64,000 bases of DNA, taken from positions 32,001 to 96,000 of the forward strand of contig CAWCFT010000001.1 in NCBI GenBank assembly GCA_963794945.1, read 5' to 3'. A program made the translations under genes and the position numbers. This document shows positions 4,031-38,422 of this stretch, piece by piece. The stretch's first letter is position 1. Every line of letters begins with the position of its first letter. The notes under the pieces were generated by a model. That model did not search any database and was not told the origin of the DNA. It saw nothing but the letters and a program-made list of their open reading frames with translations. The DNA comes from Endomicrobiales bacterium (GTDB lineage: Bacteria > Elusimicrobiota > Endomicrobiia > Endomicrobiales > CAWCFT01).

Positions 4031-4096
4031 GGTTCTCTGATTAGCGGCAGAAGAGTTTTGCGGTCAGCGCGGGATGATTCTTCTATCGCCGTGAAT

Positions 4097-5061
4097 CTAG
4101 TTCTTTCTGCGGAAACGGCGAAAACCCGAGCATTCTATAAAATCAATGGGGCCGAATTTTTTTTCTGCCGCGTCAAAAAGCAGGTTTAACCCAAGGTTGT
4201 CAGACGAAATATGGCCAGCTATCACAACGCGTATGTGAAACTTCTCCGCGTCTTTGTAGTGGTCCTCGCTCATGTGCATGCCGACTATTGTGCCCACGCC
4301 GGAATCGGCGAGGTGTTCCAGTATCTCTTTCGGCCCCTCGGTCCCGCCCGTCATGTCTACAAATACTTTGCCGGCGCTGTTCTCGTCCGATCCGGAAAAA
4401 ATGACCGGCCCCGCTCCGGAACGCGCTGCTTCCTGATATTCCGGAAGCCCTTTAAGTATTTTCATCACATCTTCAATGCGTTTAGGTTTCTGGCTGTCAA
4501 ACATGTCTTGAAGAAAGCTCGCTACCTGGTTATCAGCCACCGTGTGAGCGGACATGAAAGGAAAACCAAGAAGCCTTGCCGCGTCCGAGGCCCTGTTGTG
4601 GTTCTGGGGCATCACACTTCTTCCGACCTGCTTCATCCTTTTCTCGGTAAGCGACTCTGATATATTTATAGGCACGCCGTATTTAGTGAAAATATCAGAA
4701 CTGCATGTTCATCACGTTATAGAACGTCGCGTAAGCCTTGCCTTCCGGGTGATGCGTGAGAACAAGGTCTATCTTCTTTCCCGAAGACTTCAAGTTGGAG
4801 GCCAGCAGCAGTTTCCGGCGTTTCCATGTCTATCCCGGTAATGACGGTCTTTATTTCCTCGTCGCCGGAACCATTGAGTATTCGCGAATCGAGATAGGGG
4901 TTAGTAAGCCTGTCGCGGTCGTAATCTTTCTTCTCTTCGTCCGAGAGTTTTTCAAACTTTTTCTTTTCTTCCGTAAGCAGCCCGTTGACGGCTTCAATGC
5001 CTCGCGGGTCTTTACTGATACCCTGCTCAACGAAAAATTCGAACAATTCCCTGAGCTTCAT
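4097..5061 (-). CDS. NIF3/NGG1p-interacting-factor-like dinuclear metal protein, frameshifted near 4800
   Basis: DPRG, NPYLDSRIL, GID, HTVADN, DMTGGTEG, GMHMSE and AGHISSDNLGLN motifs are spread across two ORFs. Confidence 0.7.
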
Positions 5062-5437: not shown

Positions 5438-5779
5438 TTATCCCGGAGGCCACTTGAATTTACGGCCTCCAAGCAGGTGATAATGTATGTGCGCCACCGC
5501 CTGCCCGGCGTTCTTCCCGCAATTCAACACCAGCCTGTACCCGTCTTCGCTGATATTTTCCGTTTTCGCGAGTTCTTTAGCCACATACTGGATCTGTCCG
5601 ATCAGCGCCGCGTCCTGCACCGTAACATCGTTGAGGCCTGGAATATGCTTTTTTGTAATGATCAGAATGTGTACCGGCGCCTGAGGGGCGATATCCCTGA
5701 ACGCAACGATATCTTTATTTTCAAAAACTATTTGCGCCGGTATCTCTTTGCCGGCGATCTTACAAAAAAGGCAATCCAC
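5438..5779 (-). CDS. Histidine triad (HIT) nucleotide-binding protein
   Basis: DCLFCKI, DIAPQAPVH, HIHYHLLGGR and C-terminal WPPG. Likely GTG start at 5779 after GGGAG. Confidence 0.93.
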   Translation of the reverse strand: MDCLFCKIAGKEIPAQIVFENKDIVAFRDIAPQAPVHILIITKKHIPGLNDVTVQDAALIGQIQYVAKELAKTENISEDGYRLVLNCGKNAGQAVAHIHYHLLGGRKFKWPPG

Positions 5780-5944
5780 TATTATCTCCCGGCCGGCCAT
5801 AAATATGCGCTATGAGCCAAGGCAGAAATAATTCCCCATCATGCACAGGACTGCGTTAAAAATCCTATACGAAAATACAGAAATACGTCCGAGCATTTCA
5901 AAGAACGGACGTTTTCTATGAAAATCTAAAATTCCTGTGGATTA

Positions 5945-5973
5945 ATTATATCAGAATCGGTTTTGAAAAGCAA
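5945..5973 (-). promoter_or_regulatory. sigma70-type promoter for hit-rpsU
   Basis: TTGCTT-17 nt-TATAAT with a TG extension (TGATATAAT) on the minus strand. Confidence 0.6.
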
Positions 5974-6082
5974 GTGTTTTAGCTGTTAATCCTTAGTTGA
6001 CTTGAAATTAATATGACAATACCAGCCATTTATTATAAAGTATCTTAATAATAATTATTAAGGCTGCATAACATTTTAAACA

Positions 6083-8657
6083 CTATTGAAATAATTTTTC
6101 CGCTAGTGATCCGCAAGCCGCTTTGAGTTCAACCGCGTTCTTTGCTTTTATGTCAGCGGATTTCAATATCTGGCCGGTTTCAACGTCTATCAAGTTCGCG
6201 GTTATAAAATAGGTATCCTCAAGTTTTGAAAGGCTGCCTACTACCATACGGTTTACATTAAGTATTTTCCCAAGTTTTACGGCGCAGTCTGATTCCGTGC
6301 ATCCGGTTTGCTGGAAACGCGGCCTCAGCGAGGATTTTATCCATGCTTGATTTTTCAACTACTGTCACCTTGCCCAACTTCACGATCTCAGTCCTAAGGA
6401 AATCAGATACAATTGAAGCGTTTGCCGGAGAGGTATTCTTGGCCGCAAAATCAGACACGGCGATATTCTGTTTATTTTCCTTTACTAACACCTGTTGTGT
6501 TTTCTGCGGGCGGATCTCAGTTCCGTCAGGCGAGACAAGGATGAATTCAACCCTGCGGTTTAAGCGGCGGCCTTCTTCTTTGTCATTTGTCGCTATCGGC
6601 ATCCTGCCGCCAAACCCCTGGGCCGTGATCTTGTCAGCGGAAATTCCCTTATTTATCAGGTAGTCCCTTACGCTGTCCGCCCGGTTTTGCGAAAGGTCAA
6701 AGTTATGCATGGCATCGCCCACATTATCAGTATGGCCTTCCACGTGTAAAGAATAACCATGGTTCCTTTTTATGGTTTGGGCTACCCTGTTGAGTACCGG
6801 CTTGTCCTCAGCACTAAGGTTGTATTTGTCCGTATCGAAGTTTATAAGGCTTGCCTCGGCCTGCAGCAGTTTAACGCTTGCGGCCAGCTGGGTCAGAGTT
6901 ACGCCGTCAGCGCGGTTAGACGCCGGGCCTTCGCCGTTTTGATTAACTACCTTTATAATGCGGCTGTATGTAGTACTTTCTTCAAGCGATTGTTCGAGCC
7001 AGGAACTTGTGTTTGCCTGAAGTTCCGCGAGCAGCCTGTTATCCTTGAAATCATATATACGGTAAGATGTTACGTATTTAGCATCCTGCCATTCCCACTT
7101 TATGGACGAAGTTGACACTCCAACCCCTGAAAACAATATGGGCTGATTTACGATCATAACGCAGTCCGCGCGGTTTGATGCCGGGCCTTCGCCGTCACGC
7201 GTAACAACTTTTACAATACGGCTGTATGAAATATTTTCCTGCAGGGATGATTCCAGCCAGAAACTCGTGCTTGGCTGAAGTTCCGCAAGCATCCTGTTAT
7301 CCTTGAAATCGTAGATGCGGTAAGATACCGCGTCTTTGACTACCGGCCATTGCCACATAATTGATGAGGTTGAAACAATTGTTCCTGAAAGCTGAACCAC
7401 AGGGAAGACCGGTAAAGGCATTGTCCTGCCTTTTGCCGTATTGGAATACCCCGAAACAGCGCCGTTTTTGCCAACTGCCCGGGCTTTGAACCAGTAATCC
7501 GTGTCCGGAGAAAGCCCGCTTATTACCGTTGATGTTTTGGTTAAATTATAGCTTTGGGAAACAGCTACAGCGGTATCGTTAAAGGTCTCGTACTTTGATT
7601 GTATAATCTCATACCGCGTATTACCGGGGTTTCCATGGGCGTCCCAGGCAAGCGTAGCCGTAGTTCTGCCTGTTTCCTTAACCGTAAGGTTCAGAGGTTC
7701 GCGCGCTTTGCTGACAAATGGCCCTAGGAATAACGTAAGCGTTATGCGCTGGGTATCTCCAAGAACATTGAAAGGCGCATAGGCATAATCAAAACGCATG
7801 TTCGCGTACGCTATGCCGAGGCCCGTTGTGAACCCATCAGTGTCATAATCAGCGCGATAACCGGCCCTAACGAATAATTGTTCTTTGTATGCATATTCCA
7901 GGCCTCCGCGGAAATGCGCGTTATCGTCAATGGGCTCGACACCGTCAACGGCCGCAAGCAGTGTTGACGGGCCAAAAGTGAACTTGTGAGAAACACCCAG
8001 GTCGAATTCCTGAGCCAGTTGTTCGTCTATCTGTTCAATTTTGTAAAGGCTGCCGAAATTACGTCCGGCCATGCCGACAACCGTATTTTTATCCAAATAG
8101 AAGCTCAAACCAGCGTCGCCGGCGCACCCTTGCGCCATATCCTGGTCTATGGCCAGGCGCATTGTTTTAAACGCCACGCCAGCGAGCAAGTCTTTGTGGA
8201 AAACTGAGTATTTTCTTGCGTAAGCCAGCGAAAGGTTCATGTCGGAGGCGCCGAATGTGCCGTCTTCAATGGGCAATCCGTACGGATCCTGTCCTGTTAC
8301 CCTTATCATCGGCCCGTAATCAAGATAGGTATAGCTTAACCCTAACCCCGCGCACTTGCCAATGGGCATCGCTATATCAATGTTGCCGTATTTGGTATCA
8401 GCGAACCAGTTGGCATATGTCGCGCTGACCTGCTCGTTTGGCATTACAGCTATTCCTGAAGGGTTCCAATCAATGCTTGCCGCTTCACCGGGGACTGCTG
8501 TATAAGCTCCACCGAAACCGCTGGCGCGCGCTGAGGGCCCTATAAGCAGAAATGCTCCTGCACGGGTTCCGGCATCCGGGTTTATTGCCGCGCCTGACGG
8601 GATTGTTAAGCTCATTAATAATAGTACAATGATGAAAAGCGACGTTTTATTTCTCAT
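6083..8657 (-). CDS. PorV/FadL-like outer-membrane barrel fused to 3 FN3-like domains, an OmpA-like peptidoglycan-binding domain and a CsgG/HfaB-like C-terminal domain (~857 aa; frameshift at ~6313)
   Basis: Signal peptide, then GPSARASGFGGAYTA...WNPSG and alternating beta-strand patterns (GLEY, RAGY, FDYAY). FN3 motif GLSPDTDYWFKARA. OmpA motifs VEGHTDNVG, LSQNRA, NRRVEF. Removing one base joins NIAVSDF...MDKILAEAAF to QQTGCTESDCAVKLGKILNV...LIDVETG. Confidence 0.8.
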
Positions 8658-11600
8658 TTTATTATTGCCAATTTCTGCAAGGTCTGGTTTGAGCCTAGTT
8701 TATAACGCACTATGTAAACGCCTTTTGCTATTTTGTTGTTGCTGCCTACTACCTCTCCATCAGAGGCGTCATATTCTCCGTTGCCGCCGTTCCACATAAA
8801 CTGGTGGCGCCCTTGAGTCCGCTCGCTGTTAACCAGGACTGCCACCTTTTCGCCCGCTATGTCGTAAATGTCTATAATGACCGGGCCGGCAAACGACATA
8901 TCGTAAACGAAAGTGGCATTGCCCTTAAGCGGGTTAAAGGGATTAGGCGACGGAACATAAGACTTTTGTTCAGTTACAGTGAAGATGTCGAGCAGCATAC
9001 CTCTTTGGGTCATAGTATTTAGTGTACCTGCCGCTGCCGTCCACGTCTATTCCCCAGTCAAGTGTGCCGTCGCCGCTATAATCGAACAACTTGATCGGCG
9101 TTATCAGCCCGCTGTTGGGGTTTACAAATTTATCCGGAATTCCTTTGCCTTTTGTGTCAATAAGGAACTCATTTTTTCCGTCCGTCAGGGCTGCCACGCT
9201 TACGACTGAATTGGTCTGGCCTGTCGAGTCGACATAGACATTGTAACCACCGGAGCCGCCGTTGAAATTAAGGAAGGTTCCCGGTACTGTGGGAACGCCG
9301 GTCACGGCTAAAGAATGCACAACAACCCCAGTCGCAGGGTTGAAATAGCTGTCAGGTATACCATCATTGTTTGAATCAAATATATAATCCATCACACCGT
9401 TTCCAAGCACATCTTTTGCTATAAGCTTGTATGCGAAATTGATGTCCGGGTCCCAGTAATATGTAGGGGTGTAGTTTCCCTGGGTAGAAATCAGGAAATC
9501 TGTCCTGCCGTTGCCTTCACCGTCAATCCTGTAAACCATTGTTGAACCGGCGGCAACGTAGTCGGAATAACCCTTTGATGGATTTAAGCTATCTGTGTAA
9601 GCGTAAGAAAGAACACCGTTGCCCGTAAGATTAATAACTTTGTAGGATTGCGAGGTAAAGAAATATTCAAGCATCGCAAAGTTTGAAGGGATAAGATTCT
9701 GGTTAAAAGCGCGCACTCTGAACCAGTAAGAAGTGTTTCCAGTCAGGTTCGAGATGATCGCGGAGACCGCCCCCGTAGAGGCCGAGACAGATACTGGTGT
9801 TGATATGGAAAGCACGAAGTTATCAGTAGAAATTGAAACCTCATAATGCGTGTAGCCGGGGTTGCCGTTGGCGTTCCACGAGAAGTTAGCGCTGGTTAAT
9901 GCCGCGGTGTTTGCCGCAAGCGATGTCGGCACGGCAGCTGGAGTCAATATTCCAGCCGGGACAAGGTTAGTATAAGTTGGCACGCCTGCGCCGTTTATCG
10001 CGGCCACACGGCCATAATAAGTTGTATTAGGCATAAGCCCTGCCGCAAGGCCACCATCCGCGGAGCGGACAGTCGCGCTTGAATATATCGTGCCTGAAAA
10101 ATCCTGCGCCGTAGAGACTTGGACAGCGTATATTGTATAGGCATGGTTACTGCTTGTGTCGGACCACACAATATAAATAGACGTGGCCGTTGTTGTACTC
10201 CAGATAATATTATTTGGAGTATCCGCAAGGGTTACACCTAAAACAGTATTCGACATGCTACCAGGCTGCCCGGAACTCTGGAAAGAGCGCACCTTGAACC
10301 AATAAGTCGTGTCCGGCATGAGGCCTGTAATTCCTGTAGTAACTGCCGTTAACCCTTGCGCGAAAACAACAGGGGTTGAAAACGCAAGGATAAAATTATC
10401 AGTCGAAACATACACCTCATAAATCGTGCCTGTTGGATTATTGTTAGCATTCCAACTAATAACGGCGGATGTCAGCGTTACACTGCTTACAGAAAGGTTT
10501 GAGGGAGCCGTTGAAAGTGTTCCTGTTGTTCCAAGTATTACCCAGGATGTATCCACGCCGGCATAGTTTGTCGCTTTAACCTGATATGAGTATGTTGTGT
10601 TCGGAGTTAACGAGCCTTGAACCCACGAAGTCAGATAAGTCGTTGAAGATGCCAGAGTGGTTAAATTTTCAACTGTGTAAAGCGTTCCCAAAGGATTGCC
10701 GTTTGCAAGCCATGAAACGGTTATGCTATTGGCAGAAACCGAATATGGCGACGCGACCGGAATATTCGCCAGCGTGATCGACGTAACCACGGCGCTAAAC
10801 GCTGTTCGTATTTGCTGCGAGTTTATAGCCGCTATACCAATTGTAAAAGTTGTGTTTGGCGTCAGGCTATTTAGCCACACAGACGATGACCAGGTTGTTG
10901 TGGAGGCAAAAACAGGTACCGCGCTGAAGCTGCCGGTTGTAGTAATGTAAGAAAACCAGCCTGAAGAAGCGATATTCACGGCATAATTAGTCCAATAAGG
11001 ATCCGCTCCGGAATTTATGGAAACAGATATACTTGATATAGCGACAGAATTTAAGTTTGGCGCGGGCGGCACGGCGGCTAGGGTTGCCGTGGGATTAAAC
11101 ACTGCCCAGGAAGTATCTATGCCTGACCCGTTGGTCGCTTTTACCTGGTATGTATAAGTAGTATTTGGTGTCAGGGCACTGTTTAGCCATGATGTCAAAT
11201 ATGTTACTGAAGACACATTCAAGGTGACATTCTGTACGGTGTAATATGTGTTCTGCGTGTTCCCTGACATTGTCCAGGATACGAGCACTGTATTTGTGGT
11301 TACAACCAGAGCGATAGGCATGGGTACTGCCGACAGCGTCACAGTTGACGCGACATTTGAGAACGCTGTAGGCGTTGCGGCATCATTGGACATAAAGGCC
11401 CGGACACGGGCGTAATAGGTTGTATTCGCAACAAGGTTATATATCGTTGTATTTGTCGATGTGAACGATGATGTAAGCGCCACAGGTGTCGAGAAGTTCA
11501 ATTCAAAACCATCAGTGGAAATGGACAGTTCATAGCGCGTGTTGACTGGATCTCCGTCAGCGTTCCATGAGAGTGTCCCCGTTGAAGACAACACGCTATT

Positions 11601-14600
11601 AAACACCAGTGAAAGCGGTACCGCCGCTGGCGTCATCATTGCTGAAGGCGAAAGGTTAGTATAAGTTGCCAGCCCGTCCCATGCAACAGCTTCTACTCGT
11701 CCATAGTATGTCGTATTTGGTGTAAGTGATTGATCAAGATCCCCGCCAGCAGACTTCACTGTTGAACTTGAATACACCGTACCGCTGAAATCAGGAGCCG
11801 TTGAAAGCTGAACTATATATACCGTGTTTGGCGGGTTAGCCGTAGTATCTGCCCAAGAAACTGCTATGGCGGTACTTATCACAGTTCCCCATGAAAGGCC
11901 ATTGGGCTGAGCGGTAAGCGTAACAGTTGACACTATGTTCGAGAAAGACACGGGAATTCCCGTGTCTTGGAACGAACGCACCTTGAACCAGTACGTAGTG
12001 TCCGGCATAAGCGAGTAAACTGTGGTAGTAACACTGGTAAGGTTTTGAGCGAATACCACAGGCGTTGAGAAGTTCATAGCGAAATTGTCAGTTGAACAGT
12101 AAACCTCGTAGCTGGTGTTTGGAGGGTTGCCGTTTGATGACCATAACAAAACCGCTGTTGAACCAGTTGTTCCTGTCACAGTAAGCCCCACAGGAGCCAC
12201 AGGTATGGTCATAGTGGTAATAACAGTTGAAAAACCAGATGGATTTCCTGAAGCGTCATAGGCCCTTATCCTGGCATAGTACGTTGTATCAGGCGTCAGG
12301 CTGTAGGCAGTTGTGTTTAAGGCCGTAAACCCGGAAGAAAGGGCTACAGGTGTTGAGAAGTTGGTATTGAAGTTATCCGTTGACAGCGACACCTCATAGC
12401 GGGTATTTGAAGGGTTGCTGTTGGCGCTCCAGGATATAACTGCGCTTGAAATATAAACATTGCTGAACACTGCTATCTGTGGAATCGCAGCTGGTGTTAA
12501 TATCCATGCTGGCGACAAAGATGTTGGTGAAGTTAATCCATCCCCTGATAAAGCCATAACACGGCCATAATACGTTGTATTCGGAATGAGAGGCTGAACT
12601 ATAGCGCCACTCGCAGATTTTATAGTTGAGCTTGAATATATAGTCCCTATAAAATTAGATGCTGTGGACAGTTGCACTATATATGTAGTGTAGCCAGGGT
12701 TATTGGTATTATCTGCCCATGAAACTGCAGCTGATGTGCTTATTATGGCTCCCCATGAAATATTGTTGGGTGCAGCTAGCAAAGTTACAGTAGACACGGT
12801 ATTGGAATAAGCAGAAGGAATCCCGGAATCCTGGAATGCCCTCAGCCTGAACCAGTAGGTGGTGTTAGGCGTCAATGTATAGACTGTGGTAGTTATAGCA
12901 GTAAGGCCTTGAGCGAATACTACCGGCGTGGAAAATACAGTATTGAAATTATCCGATGAATAGTAAACCTCGTATTTGGTGTTTGATGGGTTGCCGTTAG
13001 CGTTCCAGGTCAGGACTGTTGAAGAACTGCTAACAGCACCAGTGGCAAGTAACGTTGGGTTAGCTGCGTAAGTTGTAGTACTGATAGTCGTGCCGAAGGC
13101 TGTCGGGATATTATCAGAATTCATAGCTGAAAGGTTTATAGCAAATGTCGTGTTGGGTGTAAGGCCTGTTATCAAGTTTGATATTGAAGAGGTCCAGGTA
13201 GTGGTTGTGGCATAAACAGCGGCAGCAACAAACGCTCCGCTCGTGTTGAGGTATTTTGTCCAAGCGCCGGCATTCGAGCTTATCTGTATGGCGTAATTCG
13301 TATAGTACGGGTTTGCATCCGTATTAATAGTAAACCCTATAGTAGTGGAAGATACGTTGACTACTGACGGCGCTGGCGGCGTTACTGCCAGTGTCGATGT
13401 TGAATTGTAAATAACCCATGCCGTACTTATCCCGTTATTGTTTATTGCCTGAACTTCGTATTGATAAGTAGTATTCGGGCTGAGCGATGTTGTGTCAAGC
13501 CAATATGTGTTCGATGATGTCAAAGAATTACCTGTGGTGATATTCTTGGCTGTATAAAGTGTTCCCGCTGAATTGCCGTTTACTGTCCAGTTGACATTAA
13601 CAGTCCATGTCGACGTCTGTACAGAAGCCAGCACTGGCGGCATTGCCAGCGTCGATGTCGCGGCCATCATCGCAAATGCCGTGGGTATGTTGTTGATGTT
13701 ATATGCCCTCACGCGCGCGTAGTAAGTAGTATTAGCTGAAAGCGTAACGAGCGACGTGGTAAGTCCCGTAAGATTCGAAGATAGCCATGACGCCGTTGAA
13801 TAATTCGCCACGAAGTTGTCCGTTGAATAAGATACTTCGTATACAGTATATGTCGAATTGCCGTTAGACTGCCAGTTCACTGTCATTGAAGAGGTGTAAA
13901 CATTCCCAACTACAAATGATACAGGCACAGCTGCCAGTGTCGCGCTCGTGACAGAAGTGCTGAAGGCTGTGGGCTTATTGTATTGGTTAATGGCCTGGAC
14001 ACTGTAAGTTAAAGCGACGTTCGTGGACAGGTTCGTTACCCGAACACTGTTTGTCCATGTTGTTGTTGTGTTGTATACCGCCGTTGAACTAAATCCACCT
14101 GTTGGGCTTGCGACATAGCCTGTCCAGATCCCCCCAACATTGGAGCTTACCTGTATCGCGTACTGCGTCCAGTACGGGTTTGTTCCTGGATTGATAGTAA
14201 CTGTTGCGCTCGTTATATATACATTACCCATCGTAAGTGCCGGAGGCACCGCGGCAAGTGTCACGGTAGAACCGAGGCTGACCCAGCTGCTGGCTATACC
14301 TGAATAGTTCTGTGAATTCACCTGGAATTGATAGGTTGTATTAGGAATAAGGCCGGTGCTTATCCGGACATTGTTCATGGTTGTGGAAGAGTTGCCAATA
14401 GTCATATTCTGGGCAGTATAATATGTTCCAGCCGGGTTGCTATTGTTTTGCCAGTTCGCTGTAATGCTTGTCACCCAGACCCCGTAAGCTGAAGCCAGCG
14501 GCGGGTTCGATAACGTTACAGTTGTATACGAAAGGCTGTAGCCGGTAGTAACACCAAGAATGTTTTGGGCAATCGTGCTTATTGTATAAGTCGTGTTCGG

Positions 14601-17600
14601 CGTCAGCGGGTTATTTATCCAGAAAGGCGTGCCCCAGGTTGTAGTTGAAGCGAACATCAGCGTGCTGTTGAATGTCCCGTTAGTATAATTTAGATACTGC
14701 ACTAACGCGGAAGACGATATTTGCACGCCGTACTGCGTATAGTACGGGTTTGCGGGATTGGGCATGACTGTAATGCTTATACTGGATATCTGAACCTGAT
14801 TAACTACCGGCGCCGGCGGCAGCGAGCGCCCACGTGACAGTTGAAACCACGGAAGAATACGCGGAAGATATGCCCGTGGTCTGCTGGAAAGCGCACAGTT
14901 TGAACCAGTATGTTGTATTAGGTGTCAGCAAATATACCGCAGTTGTATTGGCGGTAAAGCCCTGCGCAAGCGCCACCGGCGTCGAAAATATATTAACGAA
15001 ATTGTCCGATGAGCAGTAAAGCTCATACCTAGTATTCGACGGGTTCCCGTTGGCATTCCACGATATCACCGTTGTCGAACTGCTAACAGCGCCTGTAGCA
15101 ATGTTTGATGGTATGGCAGCGTACGTTGCTGTGCTCGCCACTGCGCCGTATACTGTCGGCACAAGGTTCGAGTTCTGTGCCGATATCCCTATTGCGAACG
15201 TCGTGTTAGGCGTCAACCCGTTTATCAACCTTGACGCTGTCCATGTTGTGGTAGTGGCGTAAACGGCCGCGCCTACAAGCGCACCGCTCGTGTTTACATA
15301 ACCTGTCCATCCCCCCCCACGAACTTATCTGTATGGCGTAATTGGTGTAGTAGGGGTTTGCATCGGTATTAATAGCGATGCTTATGCCTGTAGAAGATAC
15401 GTTAACAAGGGAAGGCGCAGGCGGCGTTACAGCGAGCGTTGAAGTGGAATTATAAATAACCCATGCCGTGCTTATGCTGTTATTGTTAATCGCCTGGACT
15501 TCGTACTGATAAGTAGTATTTGGGCTGAGCGAAGTTGTATCCAGCCAATAGGTATTAGATGAGGTCAAAGAATTATTTGTAGTGATATTTTTAGCGGTGT
15601 AAAGTGTTCCAGCGGAATTGCCGTTTGCTGTCCAGTTGACATTAATCGACCAGGTGGATGTCTGGACAGAGCTTAGCACAGGTAAGTTTGCCAGCGTAGA
15701 GGTAGCAGTCATAAGAGCGAAGGCTGTTGGTATGTTGTTGATGTTATATGCCCTGACCCGCGCGTAGTAAGTAGTGTTGGCTGAAAGCGTCACGAGCGAC
15801 GTGGTAAGAGCCGTAAGGTTTGAAGAGAGCCACGAAGCGGTTGAAAAATTAGCCGCGAAGTTGTCAGTTGAATAGGAAACTTCGTATACGGTGTAAGTTG
15901 AATTGCCGTTAGACTGCCAGTTAACAGTCATGGAAGAAGTGTAAACATTGCCAACAACGAAAGATATCGGTACAGCGGCAAGCGTCGCGCTGGTGACAGA
16001 GGTGCTGAAGGCTGTAGGCTTATTATATTGGTTAATAGCCTGTACACTGTACGTGAACGCTACGTTCGTTGACAGGTTTGTTACCCATACACTGCTTGTC
16101 CATGTAGTTGTTGTGTTGTATACCGCCGTTGAGCTAAATCCGCCTGTAGGGCTTGCTACGTAACCTGTCCACGCGCCGCTTGCAGAGCTTACCTGAATGG
16201 CATACTGCGTCCAGTAGGGGTTAGTTCCTGTATTAATAGTAACTGCCGCGCTTGTTATGAATACTCCTCCCATTAGGGGAGCTGGTGGCACAGCGGCAAG
16301 TGTTACAGTAGAGCCGAGGCTGACCCAGCTGCTTGCTGTACCTGCATAGTTCTGTGAATTAACCTGGAACTGATAAGTGGTATTGGGAACAAGGCCGGTG
16401 CTTATCCGAGACATTGTACAGTGTTGTGGAAGAAGCGCCAATGGTCATGTTCTGGGCTGTATAATATGTGCCCGCTGGGTTGCCGTTGTTTTGCCAGTTA
16501 GCCGTGATACTCGTTATCCATACGCCGTAAGCAGAGGCCAGAGGCGGGTTAGAGAGTGTCACAGTAGTCGCGATTACGCTGTAGCTGGTCTGAACTCCGT
16601 TCAGATTTTCAGCAACAACACCGATATTAAAAGTAGTGTTAGGCGTAAGAGGGCCGGCCGAGGTGTACGTGTTCCATGCTGCGGTAGAAGCAAAAACCAG
16701 TGAAAAGCCCAGCGCGCCGGAAGTGTTGAGATACTGGGTTGGCCCTGAGGAAGTGAAAGCAACGGCGTATTGGGTGTAATACGGGTTTGAGGGATTTGGT
16801 AAGACAGTAATACTCATGCTGGAATTGACAACCTGATTGATAAGAGGCATCGGAGGCACAGCTGCAAGCGTTGTGCTGATCGCTGTAGACCAGGCGGTAT
16901 TGCGATTGTAAATATCAGTCGATTTAACCTGGTAAGCATAGGTTGTGTTTGGAGTAAGCCCAGTGACACCGCCGGTATCTATCCATGTTGTCAACATGGT
17001 AGTAGACGATGCCCCGAACGTAGTATCAGAAGATGTATAGGAGGTATAGGGCGGGTTGCCGTTCAGCCGCCCAGGTTACTGTAATACTGGTCTGGTTCAT
17101 TGTAAACGGCATAAAAGTAGGCTGCGCGGCATAGGTTATTGAGCTAACAATATTTGAGAATTGTGAAGGCACTCCGTCCAGGTTGAACGGCCTGATCTTG
17201 AACCACCAAGTAGTATTCGGCTGGAGCGAGTAGACCGCGGTTGTTAACGCAGTAAGGCCGCTGGTATATACAATCGGTGTGGAATAATTCAGGTTAAATC
17301 CATCAGTAGAGCTGTAGACCTCATAACGTGTATTAGCCGGGTTTGATGTTGCCCAGCTAATTGTCCCTGAAGTCACAAGAATACTGCCTAAAGATAAAAC
17401 AGTGTCGGACAGCGCTAATGTTGTTGTGGTCACCGTAGAGCTGTACGCGGTAATATTTCCGGCTGTATTGATAGCTCTGACCTTATAAGTATAAGAAGTA
17501 TTCGTTGAAAGGCCCACGGCATAGATGTTACCGGAACCTGACCAGGAAGTTGTTGTCAGGAAGACTTCAGAGCCGAATGGAAGGCCGCTGCCTGTACAAT

Positions 17601-20600
17601 AAGATGTCCATGCGCCGCTTGCCGATGAAATGTAAATGGAGTATTGCGTCCAGTACGGGTTGCTGCCGGTATTAATAGTAATGCTCATGCTTGAGGTAGT
17701 TACATTGCTTATTGAAGGCACAGGCGGCGCCTGCGCCAGTGTTACCGTAGTGCCTAGCACAGCCCAACCTGTAGCTCTTTGCGCGTAGTTTACCGCCTGC
17801 ACCTGGTAGGTGTATGTAGTATTAGGTGTAAGGCCTGAGTGAAGCCATTGGGCCAGAAGAGTTGTTGAAGAGCCGTGCGTAGTATATGTTTCAGTAGCAA
17901 TATAAACGGTTCCTGAGGGGTTTCCGTTAGCCAGCCAGTTAGGCGTTACGCTTGTTATATAGACGTTAAATCCGGAGGCAGTCGGGATAGCGGCTAAAGT
18001 TGGCGTGGAGAACGCCGCGCTGTAAGACGTGGCCACGCCTAACGTATTTTGCCCGACAGCGCTGAATGTGTATGTGGTATTCGGCAATAGGTTAAGCACC
18101 CAGGTTGCCGCTGTCCATGTAGCGGTTGAAAAATACTGCGCGCTCGCGCCGTATACGCCGCTGGTGCTCAAGTAATTTGTCCATCCGCCAGCGGATGATA
18201 TCTGCAGGGCGTAAGCTGTATAATACGGGTTATTGGCTCCGGGCAGAACGCTAACGCTCATGCTTGAAAGGTCAACTTCGTTCAATACCGGCTGTAAAGG
18301 AGCGTTGGCAAGGGTTTCAATTGTGGTTGAGATAATCACGGTGCTGAAACCGTTATTGCCTACGGCTTTTACCTGATACTGATAAGTTGTATTTGGCGTA
18401 AGGCCGCCGTTTGCCCAGGACTGCGCTATGGTGCTTGTGGACGCCGAGTTTGTTATATTCGTTGCGGAGTAAACTGTACCTGCCGGGTTTCCGTTGGCCT
18501 GCCAGCCAATTGTAGCGGTGCCGGCAAGAATTGTAAAAGAAGTAAATGAAGGCGTTATAGCATAAGTGGTTGTTGAAACCGTTGGAGAATAAGCCGCAGG
18601 AATGCCATCATTATTGAAAGGCCGCAACCTGAACCAGTATGTGGTGTTAGCCTGCAGAGAAATAAGAGTTGTAGTAGTAGCTGTAAATCCGCTCGCAAGA
18701 GCTATTGGAGTTGAAAAATTCGCCGCGAAATTGTCAGTTGATTCATAAACTTCAAAACGGGTATTTGAGGGGTCTGAGGACGCCCATGAAATGGAAGACG
18801 TTGAAATGTAGACAGAGTTAACTGTCAAACCGGCAACCGGTATCGCCAAGGTCGCGGATGAAACAGAAGCGCCGTATGCAGTTTGAACGCCTGACATATT
18901 CTGAGCGCTCACACTGAACGTGTACGCGGTATTGGTTGATAAACCAGTTACCCATATCGTTCCAGAGCCGGACCAGCTTGAAGTTGACTGGTAAACAGGG
19001 ACCCCACTTAACCCCATATTATTGCCCGCTACATACCCGGACCAGCCAGAAGAAGAAATTTGAATGGCGTATTTGGTAGGGAATGGGTCTGAGCCCAGAG
19101 AAATGCTCACGGAAATGCTTGTAACCGCTACCGCCGGAATAGATGGCGCGGGAGGCACTGCCGCCAGAGTTACTGTTGTCCCAAGTGTTGTCCAGCTTGT
19201 CGGTAAACCATTTGAATTCGATGCCTGCACTATGTAAGTATATGATGTATTGGGTGTCAGCCCCGTCTCGATCCATGCACTTAAGATAGTTGAACTTGAA
19301 ACCAATGAAACAGTGTCCGACGAGTTATAAACTGTCCCGGCCGGGTTGCCGTTTGTCCCCCAGTTTGCCGTGATACTGGTAGTATTGACTGTAAACGGCA
19401 GAGGCGTAGGAGGCGCGGCCGCTGTTACAGTGCTTATCTGAGCGGAATACGCTGTAATAACATTATCAAGGTTCATTGCGCTGATACTAAATAAATAAGT
19501 TGTATTAGGTATCAGGCCAATTGAAAGCACATTACCCCATGTAGTAGTGGTTTGATATACAGGTGTTGAGGCAAGTGTGTAGTTCGCCTGAGTCCAGAGC
19601 TGGCTGTTGGCGCTGGATACCTGTATAGCGTAACGAGTATTTGTTGGGTTAGAGGCAGTATTTATCGCAAGCACAGCAGTAGTGCTTGAAACAGAGATAA
19701 GCATAGGCGTTCCAGGCACTCCGGCAAGCGTATGAGTACTTACTACTGAAGAATAAGATGTCGGGATTGACTGGTAGTTAAACGCGCATACCTGAAAATA
19801 ATAGGTCGTATCGGTTGAAAGGCTGCCTGTGGTATACTGAAGCAGAGGGCCGGTATACGCTGTAACCCAATGGCTATTGTCCAGCGACTGCTGAATCTGG
19901 TATATGGTTCCGGCCGAGTTGTTATTTGCCTGCCAGCTTAGTGATATCGCGCTGGTTGACACAGAAACGAAGCTCAATGAAGTAGGCACAGCCGCCAGCG
20001 TAACAGTACTTACGACAGAAGTGTAGGCTGTATAAACATCAGTTGAATTCAAAGCTGTGTTCCTCGCGCGAATCTTATAGAAATAAGTAGTGTTTGGGAA
20101 TAAGCCCTGGGTGTCAGTAAAAGTCGTGCTTGAAAGGCCGACTTTTAAGTCCCAGCTTAGGCCGTCAACTGATTCATCAACTTCATAATTTGTCCATGGG
20201 GGGTTGCCGTCGGGATCCCAGGAAAGCGATAGGGAATTGGTGCCAGCCGAGGTAAACTGCAGGTTTACTGGAGCGGTCGCAAGCGTTGTGCCGTACGACA
20301 TACTGGAGTAACTTGAATACGTTCCGTATACATCTTGAGACCTGATACGGTAGAAATAGCAAGTGTTAGGAGAGATGCCTGCCGTTGTAAACGATAAAAG
20401 TGTCCCTGTGTATATATTAGACCAGTTAGTAGTATTTACAGATGACTGTTCAAGGTCAAATATAGTGCCCGGCGGATTGGTTGATGTCCACGATACCGAT
20501 ATTGAACTGACAGCTACAAAATTGAGGGTTGGTGTGTTCGGTACGCTGGTTTTCGTTGTTGACGAGCCGAAAGTGGACCAGGATGTCTGAACACCGGCTA

Positions 20601-23600
20601 CGTTTTGCGCCTTGCCCCTGAAATAATAAACGGTATTTGGTATAAGCCCGGTAGCGTTCCATGTGTATGATGTTATCCATCCGGAACTCGAGACAGCGAC
20701 TCCTCCTGCCGAAATACTTGAAGCTTCAACGTAAAATTGTGTTCCCGAAGGATTGGTGTTCGCGAACCAGGTTGGCACCAAATTAGTTGCGTTAATATTG
20801 GATATCTGGTTAACAAGCGGCAGCGCCGCGTTAGTAAATGTAGTTGAGCTTGTACTTGTTGGAGAAGCATTGCCGAAAGTATCAGCCGCTGTCACCATGG
20901 CAGTGTATGACGTATTGGGCGTAAGCCCCGTATAGGTGTAGGTAGATGACGCTATCCATCCCGAGTTCCCTGCTGTTCCGGTAAAGTCGTATAACACGCC
21001 GCTGGTATCAGTTTGAGGCACGGCCGTCCAGGTTATATTGGTTGAAGATATGGCGATAATACTTTGCAAAACAGAGTTAATGCCATTGGAAGGAGGCTGG
21101 TTGTAAACACTAAACTGCCCGGACACTGTGCTCATAGACAGCAGATAATCGTTCACCGTAACGCTCGTGTAAACAGTGTTATAAATAGTGTTTGGAAGCG
21201 ATGTGGTTGACTGCCATACAATCGTTAATGTATTAGTAGTATATGTGATAATCTGCTGGCTGGCCAGGTCGCCTACCTGAAAGGCTCCTGAATTGTTAAC
21301 TGCGGGACTTCCCCCAGTATCATTGTACGCAGCAGTCGAGATTAATATCTGAGCTTTAGTCCATGGGCCGGTGGCGCTTGTCGTAGAAAAATAAACGTTG
21401 ACGCGGCATTTCTTTTGTTCAATATCTGAAATAGACAGCGGAATGGTGATTCTCCCGTCTCCTGTGGTTCCCTCGTATGGGAGCGCGGTGTAAGCCGCAA
21501 CAGGACCAACCTCACTGCCGTAACCGTTAAAAGCGGCCGACGAATACGCAAGTGTCAGTGTATTGCCGTAAAGATCCTGCACATTGGTAGATACAAACAC
21601 AACATACGGAGCGCTCGATGTTTGAGGGCCTGTATACATTGTAAACGAATATCCATTTATATCATAGGCGGCGGCCGAACTGACCGAAAGCCCGGCTACA
21701 GTATAGTTTGCTGAATCTGTTGCGCTTGCCAATGTGGAAGTGCTTGTATCAACAAGATTATCGCTAAATGTCAGCACAACGCTTGTTGGATTTTCCGCCA
21801 CGGCGCTTATGAGATGAGGCCCGACAGTATCAAAGTTTATAGTGAAAGTGCTTGCCGAAGAACTTGGCACTCCATCCGGATTGAGGGCAACAACCTGAAA
21901 ATAAAAATTCATGCCAATCTGATTTGTCAGGTCAGCGCACGCAAGCCCCAAATTGGTCCCGTCCCAGAGTGTTCCGTTGGAGGCGATGTAGCCGGCGCTA
22001 TTAGTGCTTGTGCCCCATATATAGCGGAAATTTGTGTAATAAGCCGTCGGAGTGGAAATAAAAACAACTGAAGGATTATTCGAGCGGCCGTTGTTAGTCT
22101 GGCCTGACAGGCATTGTATCACTGGGTTACTCGGCAATACCATGTTAACGCCTAAATAGGTTGGAGCGGTAGGTATTGGGCTGCCGTTTTGAGCCTTTAC
22201 CTGCATATAATATGATGTGAACGGTGTCAGGCCGCCGAATGTATAGGCTGAAATACCAGTCTGCCAGTTTGAAGATGACTGAATAACTGCAAATGAAAGA
22301 GAAGTAGATAGATCAACTTCGTACTGTGTAGCAGATGGATTAACCCCGGTTGCCCAGCTGGCAGTTATCTGGGATGTTGAGATTGGCGTAGGCGTTTGCG
22401 CCCCCGGAGCTTGAGCAAGCGTGTAAGTGCTGCTTTGGGCTGAAAAACCTGTGTCTACCTGCTGAAGATTCATCGCGTCAACAGCAAAGCCGTATTGAAT
22501 GTTTGGGTTAAGATTAGGCATGACAATCGGGCTTCCCCATGTTGAGATACTCTGATAAACAGCTCCTGAATAAAACATACTGTTACCAAGCGATTTATCC
22601 TGCAGTAAATAATAAGTGTTTCCGCCGCTCAGGACCTCGATACCGTAGAGCGTTCCCGCAGAATTTCCGTTCGTATTTATAGTAAGAGAAATAGACGTAC
22701 TGCTGGGTGAAGTAAGCGAGGCTACACTCGCCATTGAAGCGTACGTTGAAGTATCTATAACATCAGTGTAGAAACTGTAAGCCCCTGTCAGGCCCTGCGC
22801 GCGGGCTCTGTAATAATAAAGAGTATTTGGGCTGAGACCGGCTGTGGTAAAAGCAAGAAGCGGGCCTGTATATATGCTTGCCCAGTTAACATTGTCGGCC
22901 GAGCCTTCCAGGTCGTAATTAGTCAGAGGGCTGTTGCTGTTGGGGTCCCAGCTGATCGAAACTGAACCGCTGGAAACGGAAACAGTTGTCAGATACTGTG
23001 GATAGTTTACCGCTGTAGCGACACTGTTAAGCGCTGAAAAGGTTGTTATCGCGTTTACAGAGTTCATTGCCTGAGCTTTGAAATAATATGTAGTGTTGGG
23101 GATCAGTCCGGAGAAAATATAGTTGTTATTAGTCATCCAGGAACTCGAACCCGCAATTACGCCGAACGCAGGATCTGTGGATGCTTCTACATTATATAAG
23201 GTGCCGCTGGGGTTATTGAATGTTCCAAGGAAAACACTGATCCTTTGTGTTTCAATGAACAGGTATGAAGCAACCACAGGTATCTGAGCGCTGGTGCAGG
23301 TGCTTATATATGATGAATAGGCAGTTTGCCTGCCCAGATAATCCATCGCGGCTACTGCAAAATAATAGGTAGCATTCACCTGTAGGTTCGCGGCGTTTAT
23401 GGTGGTTCCTCCCCATGTTTGTGTGGATTGAAACACCGCAGTCGAGCCAGGTGTACCGTTTGCCTGTAAGTAGTAGGTGGTACCTTGATATAATAATTCA
23501 ACCGCATATAAGGTACCGGCTGGGTTGCCGTTGCTTTGTATGCCAACGCTTATGCTGTTGGAACTGACGCTGACAATTGAAGGCGTAACAGCCGCCGCAT

Positions 23601-25191
23601 ACGTCAGAACTCCAGCTAACGATGACGAACTCATGTTTGCGCCGTTAAATGCTTCAACATAATTATAGTATGTTGTATTTGGAGCGAGCCCGCCTTCAAC
23701 CCAAGTTGTGGTATTTGAAGCCAGTGTGGAAGAAACCTGGCCAGAAGTTGAAGAGTAGACCTGGTAGCCGCTTGCCCCAATGGAATTCTGCCATTGCCAG
23801 ATGATTGAACCCGTAGACAGCACGGTGCCGGTAAAACCAGCGGGCACTGGAGGATTGCCTGTGTATTCATACGCTCCGATGTCGGGCAGGCTTATTCTGG
23901 CAATGCCTCTCTGGTCAATAGACGGAATAGAAACCGGGCCGTTTGCCGCGGCGTTGCCCGCGTTAGTGGCAACACTGCCTGCTGAAAGCGCTAGGGTCTG
24001 AGTGCCGTTTAAGGAGCCGTTAAGCGCAAGGGAACCGCTAAGGTTAAGGTTCTGCTGGACTCCGGTTATATCTCCTGTGCCTAAAAATGTGTAGCCGTTT
24101 GTTGATACTACAATATTATAGCCGTTATCAACAACGGTTCCGGCGCTATACCTAAAGTCATATTGAGTATTATTGGCAAGCAATGAATTCTTGATATATA
24201 GAATGCTGGCAGTATCCTCAAAAACGGCTCCTGGCGTTGTCGTGGCGGCATTGCTTGCTATTGTATCATTGGTCAGGTAAAGAATATCGTTATAATTATA
24301 TATACCTCCGCCTGATGTGGAAGCTGTATTGCCGAATATGGTGCAATTAGTTATATAGCAGCTGCCGTAGTTAAAGCAAATGCCGCCGCCCCTGCTGCCT
24401 GAAGCGTTGTTGTTTATAATTGTATTTGTTATATTCCCGAAACCTGTAGATGATGAAATATATATACCGCCGCCATCACTTGTAGATGTATTGTTCGAGA
24501 CAGTGCAGCTGCTCATTGTTACTGTTGTAGTAGATAAGTAAATCGCTCCGCCCTGGTAGCCTGAATTGTTATTAAAGACAGAATTCAGAATTGAAACTGA
24601 AGCCGCGCTGCTGACGAATAAAGCTCCGCCGCCGTAAGAAGCTGAGGTGCACTGGTTGGAATTAAACGAGCAGCTGCTTATCGTCAGGTTTCCCATGTTG
24701 TATGCGTAGACCGCACCGCCATAGGTGGCTTTTGAACCGCTTATTGCGCAGTTATTCAGTGTGATATTGCCGCTCGCAGTGCTTATATAAACGGCGGCGC
24801 CTGCGCTTGACGCACAGTTTCCGCCCAGTATAGTCATATTCTGAAGCGTGACCGTTTTACCTGAGGCCGGGGGCGCTATGAAAAGTTGTATGTTGGTTGT
24901 TCCAGGTGTAGTTACTTTAATAGTGACGGGGGTACCGCTTCCGGCAGTATTAGAACCATCGATCGTGACCGTATTAGTGCTTAAAGTCAATGAAGACAAT
25001 AATGTTATAGTTTCATTACCGGCAGAGAGGCTGAAATTTATAGAATCGCCGTCAGCATAGTTTGTGGTGGCCGCGCGCAGAGAACCACCGCCGCTGTCGG
25101 CATTAGTATTAACTGTCCATGTTGTGGCTTGCGCTAAGGAACTGAAAAAAAGAAAGAAGGTAAGAGAGATAAGAAATTTATGGAAAGCCAT
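8654..25191 (-). CDS. Giant (~5,500 aa) Ser/Thr-rich surface protein with a beta-helix-like head, ~46 FN3-like repeats, DxxGDG motifs and a T9SS/FlgD-Ig-like C-terminal domain; split into six ORFs by apparent frameshifts
   Basis: Six collinear ORFs (17026-25191, 16359-16997, 15206-16441, 14800-15228, 8970-14765, 8654-9013) continue the same repeat register. Signal peptide at the start. GGA(I/V)/N-rich beta-helix repeats end in DQRG...PDIGAYE. About 46 L-x-P-N-T-T-Y-type motifs counted by eye. C-terminus PNPFNP...IDIYDIAGEKV...WNG...GVYIV...KLAIIK. Confidence 0.8.
12785..16860 (-). repeat. Tandem intragenic duplication, two units of ~2.04 kb (7 FN3 domains each)
   Basis: Blocks such as LSNPPLASAYGVW, YVASPTGGFSSTAVYNTTTTWT and WLDTTSLSPNTTYQYEVQAINNN occur twice, about 2,040 bp apart. 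Confidence 0.85.
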
Positions 25192-25312
25192 AAGGTTTAA
25201 AGTTTAAATTCGTTTTAAAGGCATAGCTAAAATTAAAAAAGCACTGTATTTTAAAGTATCTATTTACAAAACTTTAAACAAATAAAAAAATTACCTGTAA
25301 TATTGCGTAACC

Positions 25313-25341
25313 AGTATACTATTTTAAGTTTCTAGTGTCAA
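25313..25341 (-). promoter_or_regulatory. sigma70-type promoter of the giant surface-protein gene
   Basis: TTGACA-17 nt-TATACT on the minus strand, about 120 nt upstream of the ATG. Confidence 0.7.
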
Positions 25342-25387
25342 GAGTCTGGATGGATGGATAGATGTATGGTAAAATTTTACAGTTAAT

Positions 25388-26596
25388 TTAAACGGCCCAG
25401 GGATGCCCGCGAATATCAGTAATTTTAATATCAACAATCTTATTGCAATATGAATGCATATTATTATCAGAATTGAGCCTAATATAATTGTCTGTCAAGA
25501 ATGTATTCTTGTTGCCCTCAATAACAGCCGGCCGGACAGTGCCTACGAATCTCTTCCAGAAAGATGTTTCAAGTTCGTTCCCAAGCTCCCTGAGAACCGC
25601 GGACCTGCCCTTGATCTTTTCAGCTGAAACCTCGCTCTTGAACCCTGCGGCAAGAGTTCCTTCTCTCTTGGAAAACCTGAACACGTGAAGCCGGCTAAAT
25701 TTCAGTTTTTTTGCGAGAGCATATGTCTCATTGAAATCCTTGTCCGTCTCGCCGGGAAAACCAACTATAATATCCGTTGAAATACCGGCATCGGGCAATA
25801 TCTTATATACCGACCTAACCTTAGCGGAGAACTGTTCCACCGTGTAAGGCCTTCTCATTTGTTTGAGAATTTTGTCGGAGCCTGATTGCAAGGGAAGATG
25901 AAGGTGCCTGCATAACCGCCTTGGATTTTCCTTCATAAGCCGCAAGAGTTTTCCGGAAACCTCATTAACTTCGAGGGACGAAAGCCGTACGCGAAATTCT
26001 CCTTTGAGTTCAAGTATACTTTTAATTAAGTTTTCTATCCCGCCCTTGTATTTTCCCAGCCTGACGCCCGTAAGAACGATCTCGGGGTAGCCTTGCTCAA
26101 CCAGTTTATTTATCTCGGATAAAACATCGTTTGCCGGCCGGCTGAGCATTTTGTTCCTCACGTAAGGAACGATACAATAAGAACAAAAAGCGTCGCATCC
26201 GTCCTGAATTTTTACGAAAGCCCGCGAGTGGGCATCGAACCGGTTTATGCCGGAGCCCGCTTTCAAGAACGGGCCTTTATCCAGTATCGCTACAGAGGGC
26301 GATATATTTTTCAGTTCCTCGGGTGACCTCAGCGCGTAACAACCTGACACCATTACTTCAATGCCGGGGTTTTTCTTAAGCGCCTGCCTTATCATCTGCC
26401 TGCACTGCCTGTCCGCTTCACCGGTGACCGTGCAGCTGTTTATCAGCAGTGCTCCGGCGCCTTCGATCGCGCCTGTAAGCTCGTAGCCGCTTTGTTTGAA
26501 GTTTTCGCTTAGGATCTGGGTTTCGTACTGGTTTACTTTGCAACCGAAGGAGTGCACATACAGTTTTTTTACGGCGGTGTTTTTACACTTTTTCAT
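25388..26596 (-). CDS. mtaB: tRNA methylthiotransferase MtaB (radical SAM)
   Basis: FGCKVNQYE, INSCTVT, KIQDGCDAFCSYC, HLPLQSGS, DIIVGFPGET; follows rsmE. Confidence 0.88.
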   Translation of the reverse strand: MKKCKNTAVKKLYVHSFGCKVNQYETQILSENFKQSGYELTGAIEGAGALLINSCTVTGEADRQCRQMIRQALKKNPGIEVMVSGCYALRSPEELKNISPSVAILDKGPFLKAGSGINRFDAHSRAFVKIQDGCDAFCSYCIVPYVRNKMLSRPANDVLSEINKLVEQGYPEIVLTGVRLGKYKGGIENLIKSILELKGEFRVRLSSLEVNEVSGKLLRLMKENPRRLCRHLHLPLQSGSDKILKQMRRPYTVEQFSAKVRSVYKILPDAGISTDIIVGFPGETDKDFNETYALAKKLKFSRLHVFRFSKREGTLAAGFKSEVSAEKIKGRSAVLRELGNELETSFWKRFVGTVRPAVIEGNKNTFLTDNYIRLNSDNNMHSYCNKIVDIKITDIRGHPWAV

Positions 26597-30484: not shown

Positions 30485-30554
30485 AACACTTACCTCCGAT
30501 ATTTAACGTTAATAAAACTAAATTTCTTTTTTTGAGACTACTAACAAAAGCCCG

Positions 30555-33620: not shown

Positions 33621-33624
33621 TTGA

Positions 33625-35931: not shown

Positions 35932-35991
35932 TTTATAGTATTGAACAGCGAAAATATATTCTAAAACCTCAGATATCCCAGGAGCATTCTG

Positions 35992-38387: not shown

Positions 38388-38422
38388 TTTGTTTTCCTAT
38401 GTCCTTGTGATTTTCTGTTTAA

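Follow-up and report, generated by a model that had tools for sequence, protein, structure and literature searches.

How might a bacterium hold a protein of some 5,500 residues at its surface? The question is raised by a locus in a 64,000-nucleotide stretch of contig CAWCFT010000001.1 of an Endomicrobiales bacterium (the window, whose numbering we use throughout), where a giant FN3-rich gene, here called the cargo gene, is followed directly by a second gene (gene 2) encoding a PorV-like barrel fused to an OmpA-type domain. We propose, with a probability of about 0.6, that the two products form a cargo-specific, wall-tethered surface anchor in which the barrel holds the tail of the giant protein and the fused OmpA domain ties the complex to the cell wall. 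By analogy, the pair is best read as working like PorQ-PorZ with the wall tether of PorE built in; binding, wall tethering, and dedication to one cargo are predictions from models. The system of reference is the secretion system of type IX (T9SS), which passages of PMC11285876 place in Bacteroidota and perhaps other phyla of the Fibrobacterota-Chlorobiota-Bacteroidota (FCB) group, describing its genes as absent from phyla outside that group. PorU-PorV-PorQ-PorZ is presented as the attachment complex in PMC9143113 and PMC11285876. The genome under study, a metagenome-assembled genome (MAG), comprises 2.9 Mb on 19 contigs, with an estimated completeness of 85.9% and contamination of 5.9%.

A giant FN3 protein ends in a type-A-like sorting domain

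The cargo gene lies on the minus strand (8654..25191), as do all features of the pair described below, and runs from an ATG at 25191 to a stop at 8654-8656, a span of 16,535 nt or ~5,511 codons. As assembled it is not a single open reading frame (ORF) but six contiguous, overlapping open frames joined through five frame changes, which we take up below; FN3 is the main Pfam family in all six pieces and dominates throughout. The protein begins with a signal peptide (MAFHKFLISLTFFLFFSSLAQA; 25126..25191), read from the sequence and with a presumed cleavage site. An adhesin-like head region of beta-helix type lies in its N-terminal part (23863..24510), where we found choice-of-anchor Q matches (NF041518, 44.8 bits against a cut-off of 25) together with a Chlam_PMP repeat (PF02415, 23.3 bits).

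The final 110 residues carry the motifs PNPFNP, IYDIAGEKV, WNG, KGVYIV, and KLAIIK and correspond to a type-A-like T9SS C-terminal sorting domain (CTD; 8657..8986). The curated type A model, TIGR04183, scored this CTD at 22.1 bits, slightly below its cut-off of 23, and scored the orthologous CTD in a relative from another family of the same order (G014) at 24.2 bits, above the cut-off. Using a lineage hidden Markov model (HMM) built from 32 CTDs of relatives, from which the window CTD and its orthologue had been left out, we obtained 50.8 bits for the window CTD (E 1.6e-13 against 22,718 ORFs of the genome). The domain contains a 16-residue insertion, and a PDB sequence search with it returned no match. 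Between the FN3 array and the CTD (window 9000-9600), repeated Asp/Gly-rich D-x-D-G-x-G motifs, shared with the G014 orthologue, look like calcium-binding loops.

Gene 2 fuses a PorV-like barrel to an OmpA-type domain

Gene 2 (6083..8657) comprises ~857 codons up to its stop at 6083-6085. Its start codon overlaps the stop codon of the cargo gene in an ATGA (8654..8657), and this overlap shows, at the level of sequence, a translationally coupled pair. The gene is open for 799 codons before a single frame change near 6308-6320, within its C-terminal domain. The barrel, FN3, and OmpA parts all lie in that one unbroken frame, and the barrel-FN3-OmpA fusion is therefore independent of the frame-change question.

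Residues 32-309 (7731..8564) belong to the PorV/PorQ family of 14-stranded beta-barrels: the family model PorV_fam (NF033709), whose cut-off is 90 bits, scored 146.8 bits and was matched from position 2 to position 324 of its 326. The best specific NCBIfam models after it, PorQ (NF033711, 104.6 against 220 bits) and PorV (NF033710, 60.3 against 250 bits), both scored below their equivalog cut-offs, and phmmer retrieved the PorV chain 6h3i_F (E 2.8e-4). An AlphaFold2 model of residues 1-320, with 42 aligned barrels as input, formed 14 strands (pLDDT 88.2, pTM 0.83). The first two Foldseek matches to it were PorV chains, 8gl6_F (E 3.6e-15, TM 0.74) and 6h3i_F (E 1.5e-12, TM 0.71), followed by FadL-type barrels at TM 0.60 or less. 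Outer-membrane barrels usually have both termini in the periplasm, and by this topology rule everything in gene 2 after residue 311 would be periplasmic.

Three FN3-like domains come next (about residues 318-590; 6888..7706) as a predicted periplasmic spacer; fn3 scored 57.9 bits in 2 stretches, and a 258-nt repeat (1.9 copies, 76% matches) corresponds to the second and third units. They lead to an OmpA_C-like domain (residues 607-701; 6555..6839) that belongs to PF00691 (84.3 bits, cut-off 27.2, covering positions 2-98 of the 98 in the model) and, going by this family, would bind peptidoglycan. The PorE model (NF052230) matched the OmpA part alone, at 56.1 bits against a cut-off of 600, which leaves gene 2 outside the PorE family, and the PorP/SprF models (PF11751, TIGR03519) had no match in gene 2 at E <=0.01. 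A reading of the pair as a type B CTD with a PorP/SprF barrel was ruled out: gene 2 lacks a PorP_SprF match, and the type B CTD and PorP models each found one weak match in the genome, at other loci (TIGR03519 at C11). The last domain, from residue 731 (6092..6467), is CsgG/LpoB/FlgO-like and has the frame change inside it. FlgO matched at 22.0 bits against a cut-off of 22.6, and the two halves are collinear with an intact paralogous domain elsewhere in the genome (G000:C5:22989-24479; 71% identity over 368-418 and 64% over 418-492, meeting at 418), which itself exceeds the CsgG and LpoB cut-offs.

A homologous-protein search with gene 2 found 5 proteins at E <=1e-10, of which one, the G014 protein, is a true orthologue. 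A related-locus search retrieved OmpA-domain matches alone, in MAGs of Desulfobacteraceae, Methylococcaceae, and Geobacter, and is uninformative on the pair. A first-pass annotation, made from the letters of the window, had described a ~5,500-aa FN3 protein ending in a PNPFNP...IYDIAG...WNG...GVY...K domain, an ATGA overlap, and a following gene for a barrel, three FN3 domains, an OmpA domain, and a CsgG-like domain. We found each of these in its place, the giant protein as six frames, and the N-terminal domain of gene 2 does fold as a PorV-like barrel in the model.

Co-folding predicts docking of the giant protein's tail on the barrel

Co-folding of the barrel with the CTD from separate alignments gave an ipSAE of 0.91, against 0.00 for the best of 3 controls, in agreement with the interface that had been proposed. 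Solved complexes attain this ipSAE mark in 116 of 157 cases and mismatched pairs in 2 of 215, counts that are rough owing to custom alignments. Docking runs agreed in at least 96% of contacts, with a partner pLDDT of at least 89. On the CTD side, the contacts fall on its conserved motifs. On the barrel side, the modelled contacts comprise an N-terminal segment (24-39) and alternate inter-strand loops with adjoining strand ends, near residues 85-88, 124-128, 171-172, 203-216, 243-247, 270-274, and 297-299. With alternate loops in contact, the CTD contacts are confined to a single face of the barrel; under the topology rule this would be the extracellular face.

CTD and barrel genes tend to be paired across the genome and the order

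To ask whether the adjacency of CTD and barrel genes recurs, a check that the first reading of the window had proposed, we searched the genome with the curated models. PorV_fam gave 33 matches at 25 loci, 11 of them above the cut-off (one locus is really FadL), and the type A CTD model gave 27 matches, 20 above its cut-off. A PorV_fam match lies at most 600 nt downstream on the same strand for 16 of the 27 CTD matches, and 24 of the 27 are within 4 kb of a same-strand barrel. Counted from the barrels, 17 of the 25 loci have a CTD at most 600 nt upstream, the window CTD having been added by hand. By gene order, this genome contains at least 17 cargo/barrel modules, the pair among them.

From 30 relatives of the same order (9 other families, 20 genera), we selected the 40 barrel matches that ranked highest, with similarity as the sole criterion. 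A CTD-ending ORF lies directly upstream on the same strand in 29 of the 39 assessable cases, as judged by a CTD HMM built from barrel-adjacent CTDs of the genome under study, which may favour similar CTDs; one further barrel is at a contig end. Distances between barrels and between CTDs were correlated over 31 pairs (Mantel r 0.78, with 0 of 2000 permutations as high), and in 26 of the 31 the CTD of the nearest barrel was among the three nearest CTDs.

The orthologous pair in G014 has the CTD gene directly upstream of the barrel gene. Its barrel is 53% identical to that of gene 2 and is fused to OmpA via a short linker in a 502-codon frame, without FN3 or the last domain; its CTD is 62% identical to the window CTD and has the identical 16-residue insertion, and its cargo shares 34% identity with the giant protein over 1,375 residues. 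In two further relatives (G003 and G007), barrel and OmpA are likewise fused, within frames of 589 and 674 codons that each come after a CTD-ending ORF, which brings the relatives with both a fusion and an upstream CTD gene to three. The fusion read in the window therefore stands, in its own unbroken frame and in these relatives.

We also scanned 20 long barrel ORFs, 10 from this genome and 10 from relatives, for tail domains. TPR was found in seven, CsgG/LpoB-like domains in two, CarboxypepD_reg in two, and LysM in one; one of the 20 was FadL proper and seven had no recognised tail. The tails found in this lineage (LysM, OmpA, TPR, CarboxypepD_reg, CsgG/LpoB-like) overlap the domain set of PorE as PMC9143113 describes it. 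One locus (G000:C12:80922-83159) has three neighbours in series, namely an ORF ending in a CTD, a small ORF for a response-regulator receiver, and a TPR-tailed PorV-like barrel, and a second barrel-TPR gene (C12:56509-58068) likewise follows a receiver-domain ORF. Two other loci (G000:C15:12972-19590 and C5:22989-26428) have two or three CTD genes around one PorV-like barrel, so that some barrels may serve more than one cargo.

A SprA-like protein is encoded elsewhere, with no motor or sortase found

The first-pass annotation had suggested a minimal two-gene system and had noted the lack of porK/L/M/N and sprA in the 64-kb window. We likewise found none of these genes in the window. The fusion of receptor and wall anchor in one protein stands; self-containment does not, the pair being one of many modules in a genome with a SprA-like gene elsewhere. 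That gene, on another contig, encodes a protein of 1,767 residues with two weak TIGR04189 matches, of 58.6 and 57.4 bits where the cut-off is 200, and with no Pfam or PDB sequence match. It is single copy and occurs in 28 of the 30 relatives at 39-55% identity. Among its Atlas look-alikes, 25 of 30 fall in a set with SprA_N on 20% of members, and SprA_N (PF14349) is present on 15 of 120 listed homologues. The organisms named for these homologues are Elusimicrobia/Elusimicrobiota, Endomicrobiales, Endomicrobiia, and Endomicrobium, including Endomicrobium proavitum, with one given just as 'bacterium'. These names, attached to homologues of one protein, are the basis on which the analysis assigned the phylum.

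Of the T9SS core genes sought across the genome, only this SprA-like gene was recovered. Models for GldK, GldL, GldM, and GldN had no match in the 85.9%-complete genome; among the 31 genomes, GldM matched none and GldL one, at 24.7 bits, below its cut-off. The sensitivity of these models is unproven, since in control genomes GldK matched three, all below the cut-off, and the other three matched none, leaving the searches without a positive control. The peptidase part of PorU was not found either: in all listed rows the PorU model matched from position 836 on, its CTD-like end, and none of the 31 genomes exceeded the cut-off. An A-LPS attachment route was also not found.

The SprA-like gene stands beside lptF/lptG (G000:C5:39157-49880; L061, L059), with a DDE transposase between them. 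In two relatives (G007 and G005; L062, L063), a CTD-bearing M6-type metallopeptidase gene (~550 residues) and a gene for a DUF5723-like barrel (~500-527 residues) accompany the SprA-like and lptFG genes; in the genome under study no M6-type peptidase gene is at that place. For roughly a dozen relatives, the PorU-model rows suggest that a similarly sized CTD protein is encoded close to the SprA-like gene.

From these parts, we outline how the anchor could work. The cargo has a Sec-type signal peptide, as read from the sequence, and would cross the outer membrane via the conserved, single-copy SprA-like protein, which the modules presumably share. For its CTD, docking on one face of the 14-stranded barrel is predicted, and it would stay in place there; because no PorU-type sortase was found, anchoring would be non-covalent, with the CTD retained. 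The three FN3 domains would act as a spacer across the periplasm, with peptidoglycan bound by the OmpA domain, so that pull on the very long adhesin could be passed to the wall by a fixed, load-bearing rivet. A further contact in the periplasm is the likely role of the terminal CsgG/LpoB/FlgO-like domain.

The alternative that survives best, though we consider it unlikely, is that the barrel is an export-only carrier, a PorV-like shuttle or translocon partner rather than a permanent anchor, and that the CTD is later removed. PorV is the shuttle for type A CTDs in Bacteroidota, according to PMC12618676 and PMC5562754; the closest fold to our barrel is PorV within a substrate-bound translocon complex, and the CTD-bearing M6-type peptidase of the two relatives could be a processing enzyme. 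Against this, a barrel fused to OmpA via three FN3 domains should be immobile, a better fit for an anchor than for a shuttle. One barrel per cargo would be wasteful for a general shuttle, and a peptidase part of PorU was found in none of the 31 genomes.

The frame changes are probably assembly errors

The six open frames of the cargo gene (17026-25203, 16359-17075, 15206-16444, 14800-15324, 8970-14924, and 8654-9046) comprise 2,725, 238, 412, 174, 1,984, and 130 codons, respectively. The five frame changes between them fall in the overlaps at 17026..17075, 16359..16444, 15206..15324, 14800..14924, and 8970..9046, the last immediately ahead of the CTD. Over the two genes, a homopolymer of at least 5 occurs at one of the six sites, an eight-G run at 15318 in the third overlap; the first overlap, for example, has none. 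Collapse of repeats as the source of the frame changes was ruled out, a repeat scan having found no tandem DNA repeat inside the giant gene.

Were the frame changes real, both genes could be decaying pseudogenes from which no functional pair is made, a reading that we regard as improbable, more so than the export carrier. It draws on the density of the changes, six in 19 kb with one alone in a homopolymer, and on public reads: the one public run found, containing 0.06 of the sampled words, gave ten short contigs, 100% identical, and none of the eight listed spans a frame-change site. Each piece nevertheless remains open over 130 to 2,725 codons and lacks the scattered stops that decay would be expected to leave. 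In the same assembly, the essential gene dnaK (window 28639-30560) has a frame change ~25 codons past its start, dnaG (window 2620-4700) lacks its N-terminal part in frame, and several other genes of the genome have internal stops. The dnaK and dnaG defects point to indel errors across the whole assembly. A database gene call is 100% identical to gene 2 across the first 588 residues, or 74% of the query, and then ends differently, which suggests assembly-specific errors. Because dnaK is frame-shifted, dnaG is truncated, internal stops occur elsewhere, the database call diverges, and the halves of the last domain of gene 2 still align at 64-71% identity with an intact paralogue, we read the six frame changes as probable assembly errors.

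Weighing the anchor against the remaining alternatives

We give very little credence to the barrel being a dedicated translocator of its neighbour, in the style of two-partner secretion and without a shared SprA-like pore. The one cargo/one barrel layout and the lack of a detected T9SS motor would suit it. The barrel, however, has a 14-stranded PorV/FadL fold with the N-terminal segment 24-39 among the modelled CTD contacts, which sets it apart from POTRA-bearing Omp85/TpsB barrels (CdiB and FhaC match far less well, at TM 0.37-0.38); two-partner secretion was ruled out on fold, and a single-copy SprA-like gene is kept in 28 of 30 relatives. Least probable of all is a general OmpA- or Pal-like envelope tether unrelated to the adjoining giant gene, for although OmpA-domain outer-membrane proteins are common housekeeping tethers and the OmpA part alone matches many unrelated MAGs, the ATGA overlap, the orthologous cargo-CTD-barrel-OmpA pair in G014, the adjacency at 17 of 25 own loci and 29 of 39 in relatives, and a barrel of the PorV/PorQ family rather than the 8-stranded OmpA type all speak against it.

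Several points weigh against the wall-tethered anchor itself. The case for it is computational throughout. The curated type A model places the CTD slightly under its cut-off, and, if real, the five frame changes in the cargo gene and the one in the barrel gene would make pseudogenes of the pair. The docking result may stem from solved PorV-CTD complexes, 8GL6 among them, that the model has memorised; what it shows is likeness, and neither binding by this copy nor specificity for this cargo. Eight of the 25 barrel loci in the genome have no CTD gene directly upstream, nor do 10 of the 39 barrels in relatives (L015, L016, L022, L023, L030, L031, L034, L040, L043, L044), so that pairing is a tendency and not a rule. 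The Mantel r is just 0.17 for pairs below 40% barrel identity, which makes the signal mainly one of co-inherited subfamilies, and it may reflect shared duplication history alone. The absence of GldK/L/M/N comes from models of unproven sensitivity in an incomplete genome, and the M6-type metallopeptidase near the SprA-like gene in two relatives could process CTDs, undercutting a retained CTD. Finally, a wall-tethered barrel cannot shuttle to the translocon as PorV does, which leaves the route of the cargo to the barrel unexplained.

Promoter and flanking genes

Upstream of the giant gene, we found the promoter-like site TTGACA-17-TATACT (25313..25341, minus strand), which matches the consensus at 11 of 12 positions. 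The pair had been credited with its own promoter at this site; scored by consensus alone, it is a candidate and the best promoter-like match within 5700-25600, although such matches are common in the region (43 found against 32.4 expected). The pair is flanked by housekeeping genes, with rpoD and dnaG on one side and a MiaB-like radical SAM gene, rsmE, dnaJ, dnaK, grpE, and hrcA on the other. Downstream of hrcA (window 32351-37473), three genes in series encode a radical SAM/SPASM protein, a 768-residue glycosyltransferase of the PMT_2 type, and a second radical SAM protein, of the B12-binding kind. Farther along, a low-GC stretch (window 38000-44424; 0.36-0.39) encodes a DUF5677 protein (38994-39590), a KAP-family NTPase (40408-42804), and a ParB-like protein (42871-44424), and looks like an inserted island, perhaps a defence-related one.

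Discussion

In Porphyromonas gingivalis, PorU and PorZ keep their CTDs, and PorZ is anchored on PorQ, and PorU on PorV, non-covalently. PorZ-PorQ and PorU-PorV resemble the arrangement predicted here, in which a type-A-style CTD sits on a 14-stranded PorV/PorQ-family barrel, and CTDs of the relatives match the PorZ and PorU models at their C-terminal ends. Here, instead, barrel paralogues number one per cargo and are encoded just downstream of it, and in gene 2 the barrel is fused to FN3, OmpA, and CsgG/LpoB-like domains. The SprA-PorV translocon of Flavobacterium johnsoniae (6H3I, 8GL6) contains the closest fold to our barrel, and a divergent SprA-like protein is also encoded in this genome; it differs in that our SprA-like protein reaches 58.6 bits against a cut-off of 200 and that no GldL/M motor was found.

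The wall link has its own precedent. PorE has been proposed to bridge PorP to peptidoglycan, six porP-like genes adjoin porE-like genes in F. johnsoniae, and the authors postulate wall anchoring of non-mobile cargo via PorE, as set out in parts of PMC9143113. In the PorE-PorP-PG1035 system of P. gingivalis described there, a CTD-bound barrel is linked to peptidoglycan via an OmpA_C-like domain, as is predicted here; that system has a PorP/SprF-type barrel, a type B CTD, and a separate lipoprotein, PorE, whereas the locus studied here has a PorV/PorQ-type barrel, a type-A-like CTD, and a fused anchor. Type B substrates have cognate PorP/SprF shuttles and type A CTDs are all recognised by a single PorV in the account of PMC12618676. 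SprB-SprF likewise links a giant adhesin gene to its own barrel gene, with one barrel per cargo (PMC12618676; PMC9143113), and is of type B, whereas here type-A-like CTDs have private barrels. Barrels paired with cargo and with a wall anchor, each a protein of its own, are already known from the closest published analogues (PorQ-PorZ, PorV-PorU, and PorE-PorP-PG1035). A literature search, with subscription journals outside its reach, found no description of PorV-OmpA fusions or T9SS-like parts in Elusimicrobiota.

The locus shows the cargo-recognition half of a T9SS (CTD, PorV/PorQ-type barrel, and SprA-like protein) in a lineage whose named relatives are Elusimicrobiota/Endomicrobia. These parts occur here without a motor or sortase found, and in a one-barrel-per-cargo layout so far known just for type B CTDs with PorP/SprF. 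More tentatively, and at somewhat less than even odds, we suggest that Elusimicrobiota may run a stripped-down, type-IX-like export and display system, in which a SprA-like pore works without a PorKLMN motor or sortase and each cargo has its own PorV-like dock; at this locus the dock and the wall anchor would have merged, riveting a 5,500-residue adhesin non-covalently to peptidoglycan by a single protein. The locus also poses the question of what powers a SprA-like pore if PorLM is lacking, and is of solid interest for the type IX secretion and cell-envelope fields. The barrel-OmpA fusion would be a natural single-chain version of the proposed PorP-PorE wall bridge, making the idea of wall-tied fixed adhesins as opposed to untied mobile ones directly testable.

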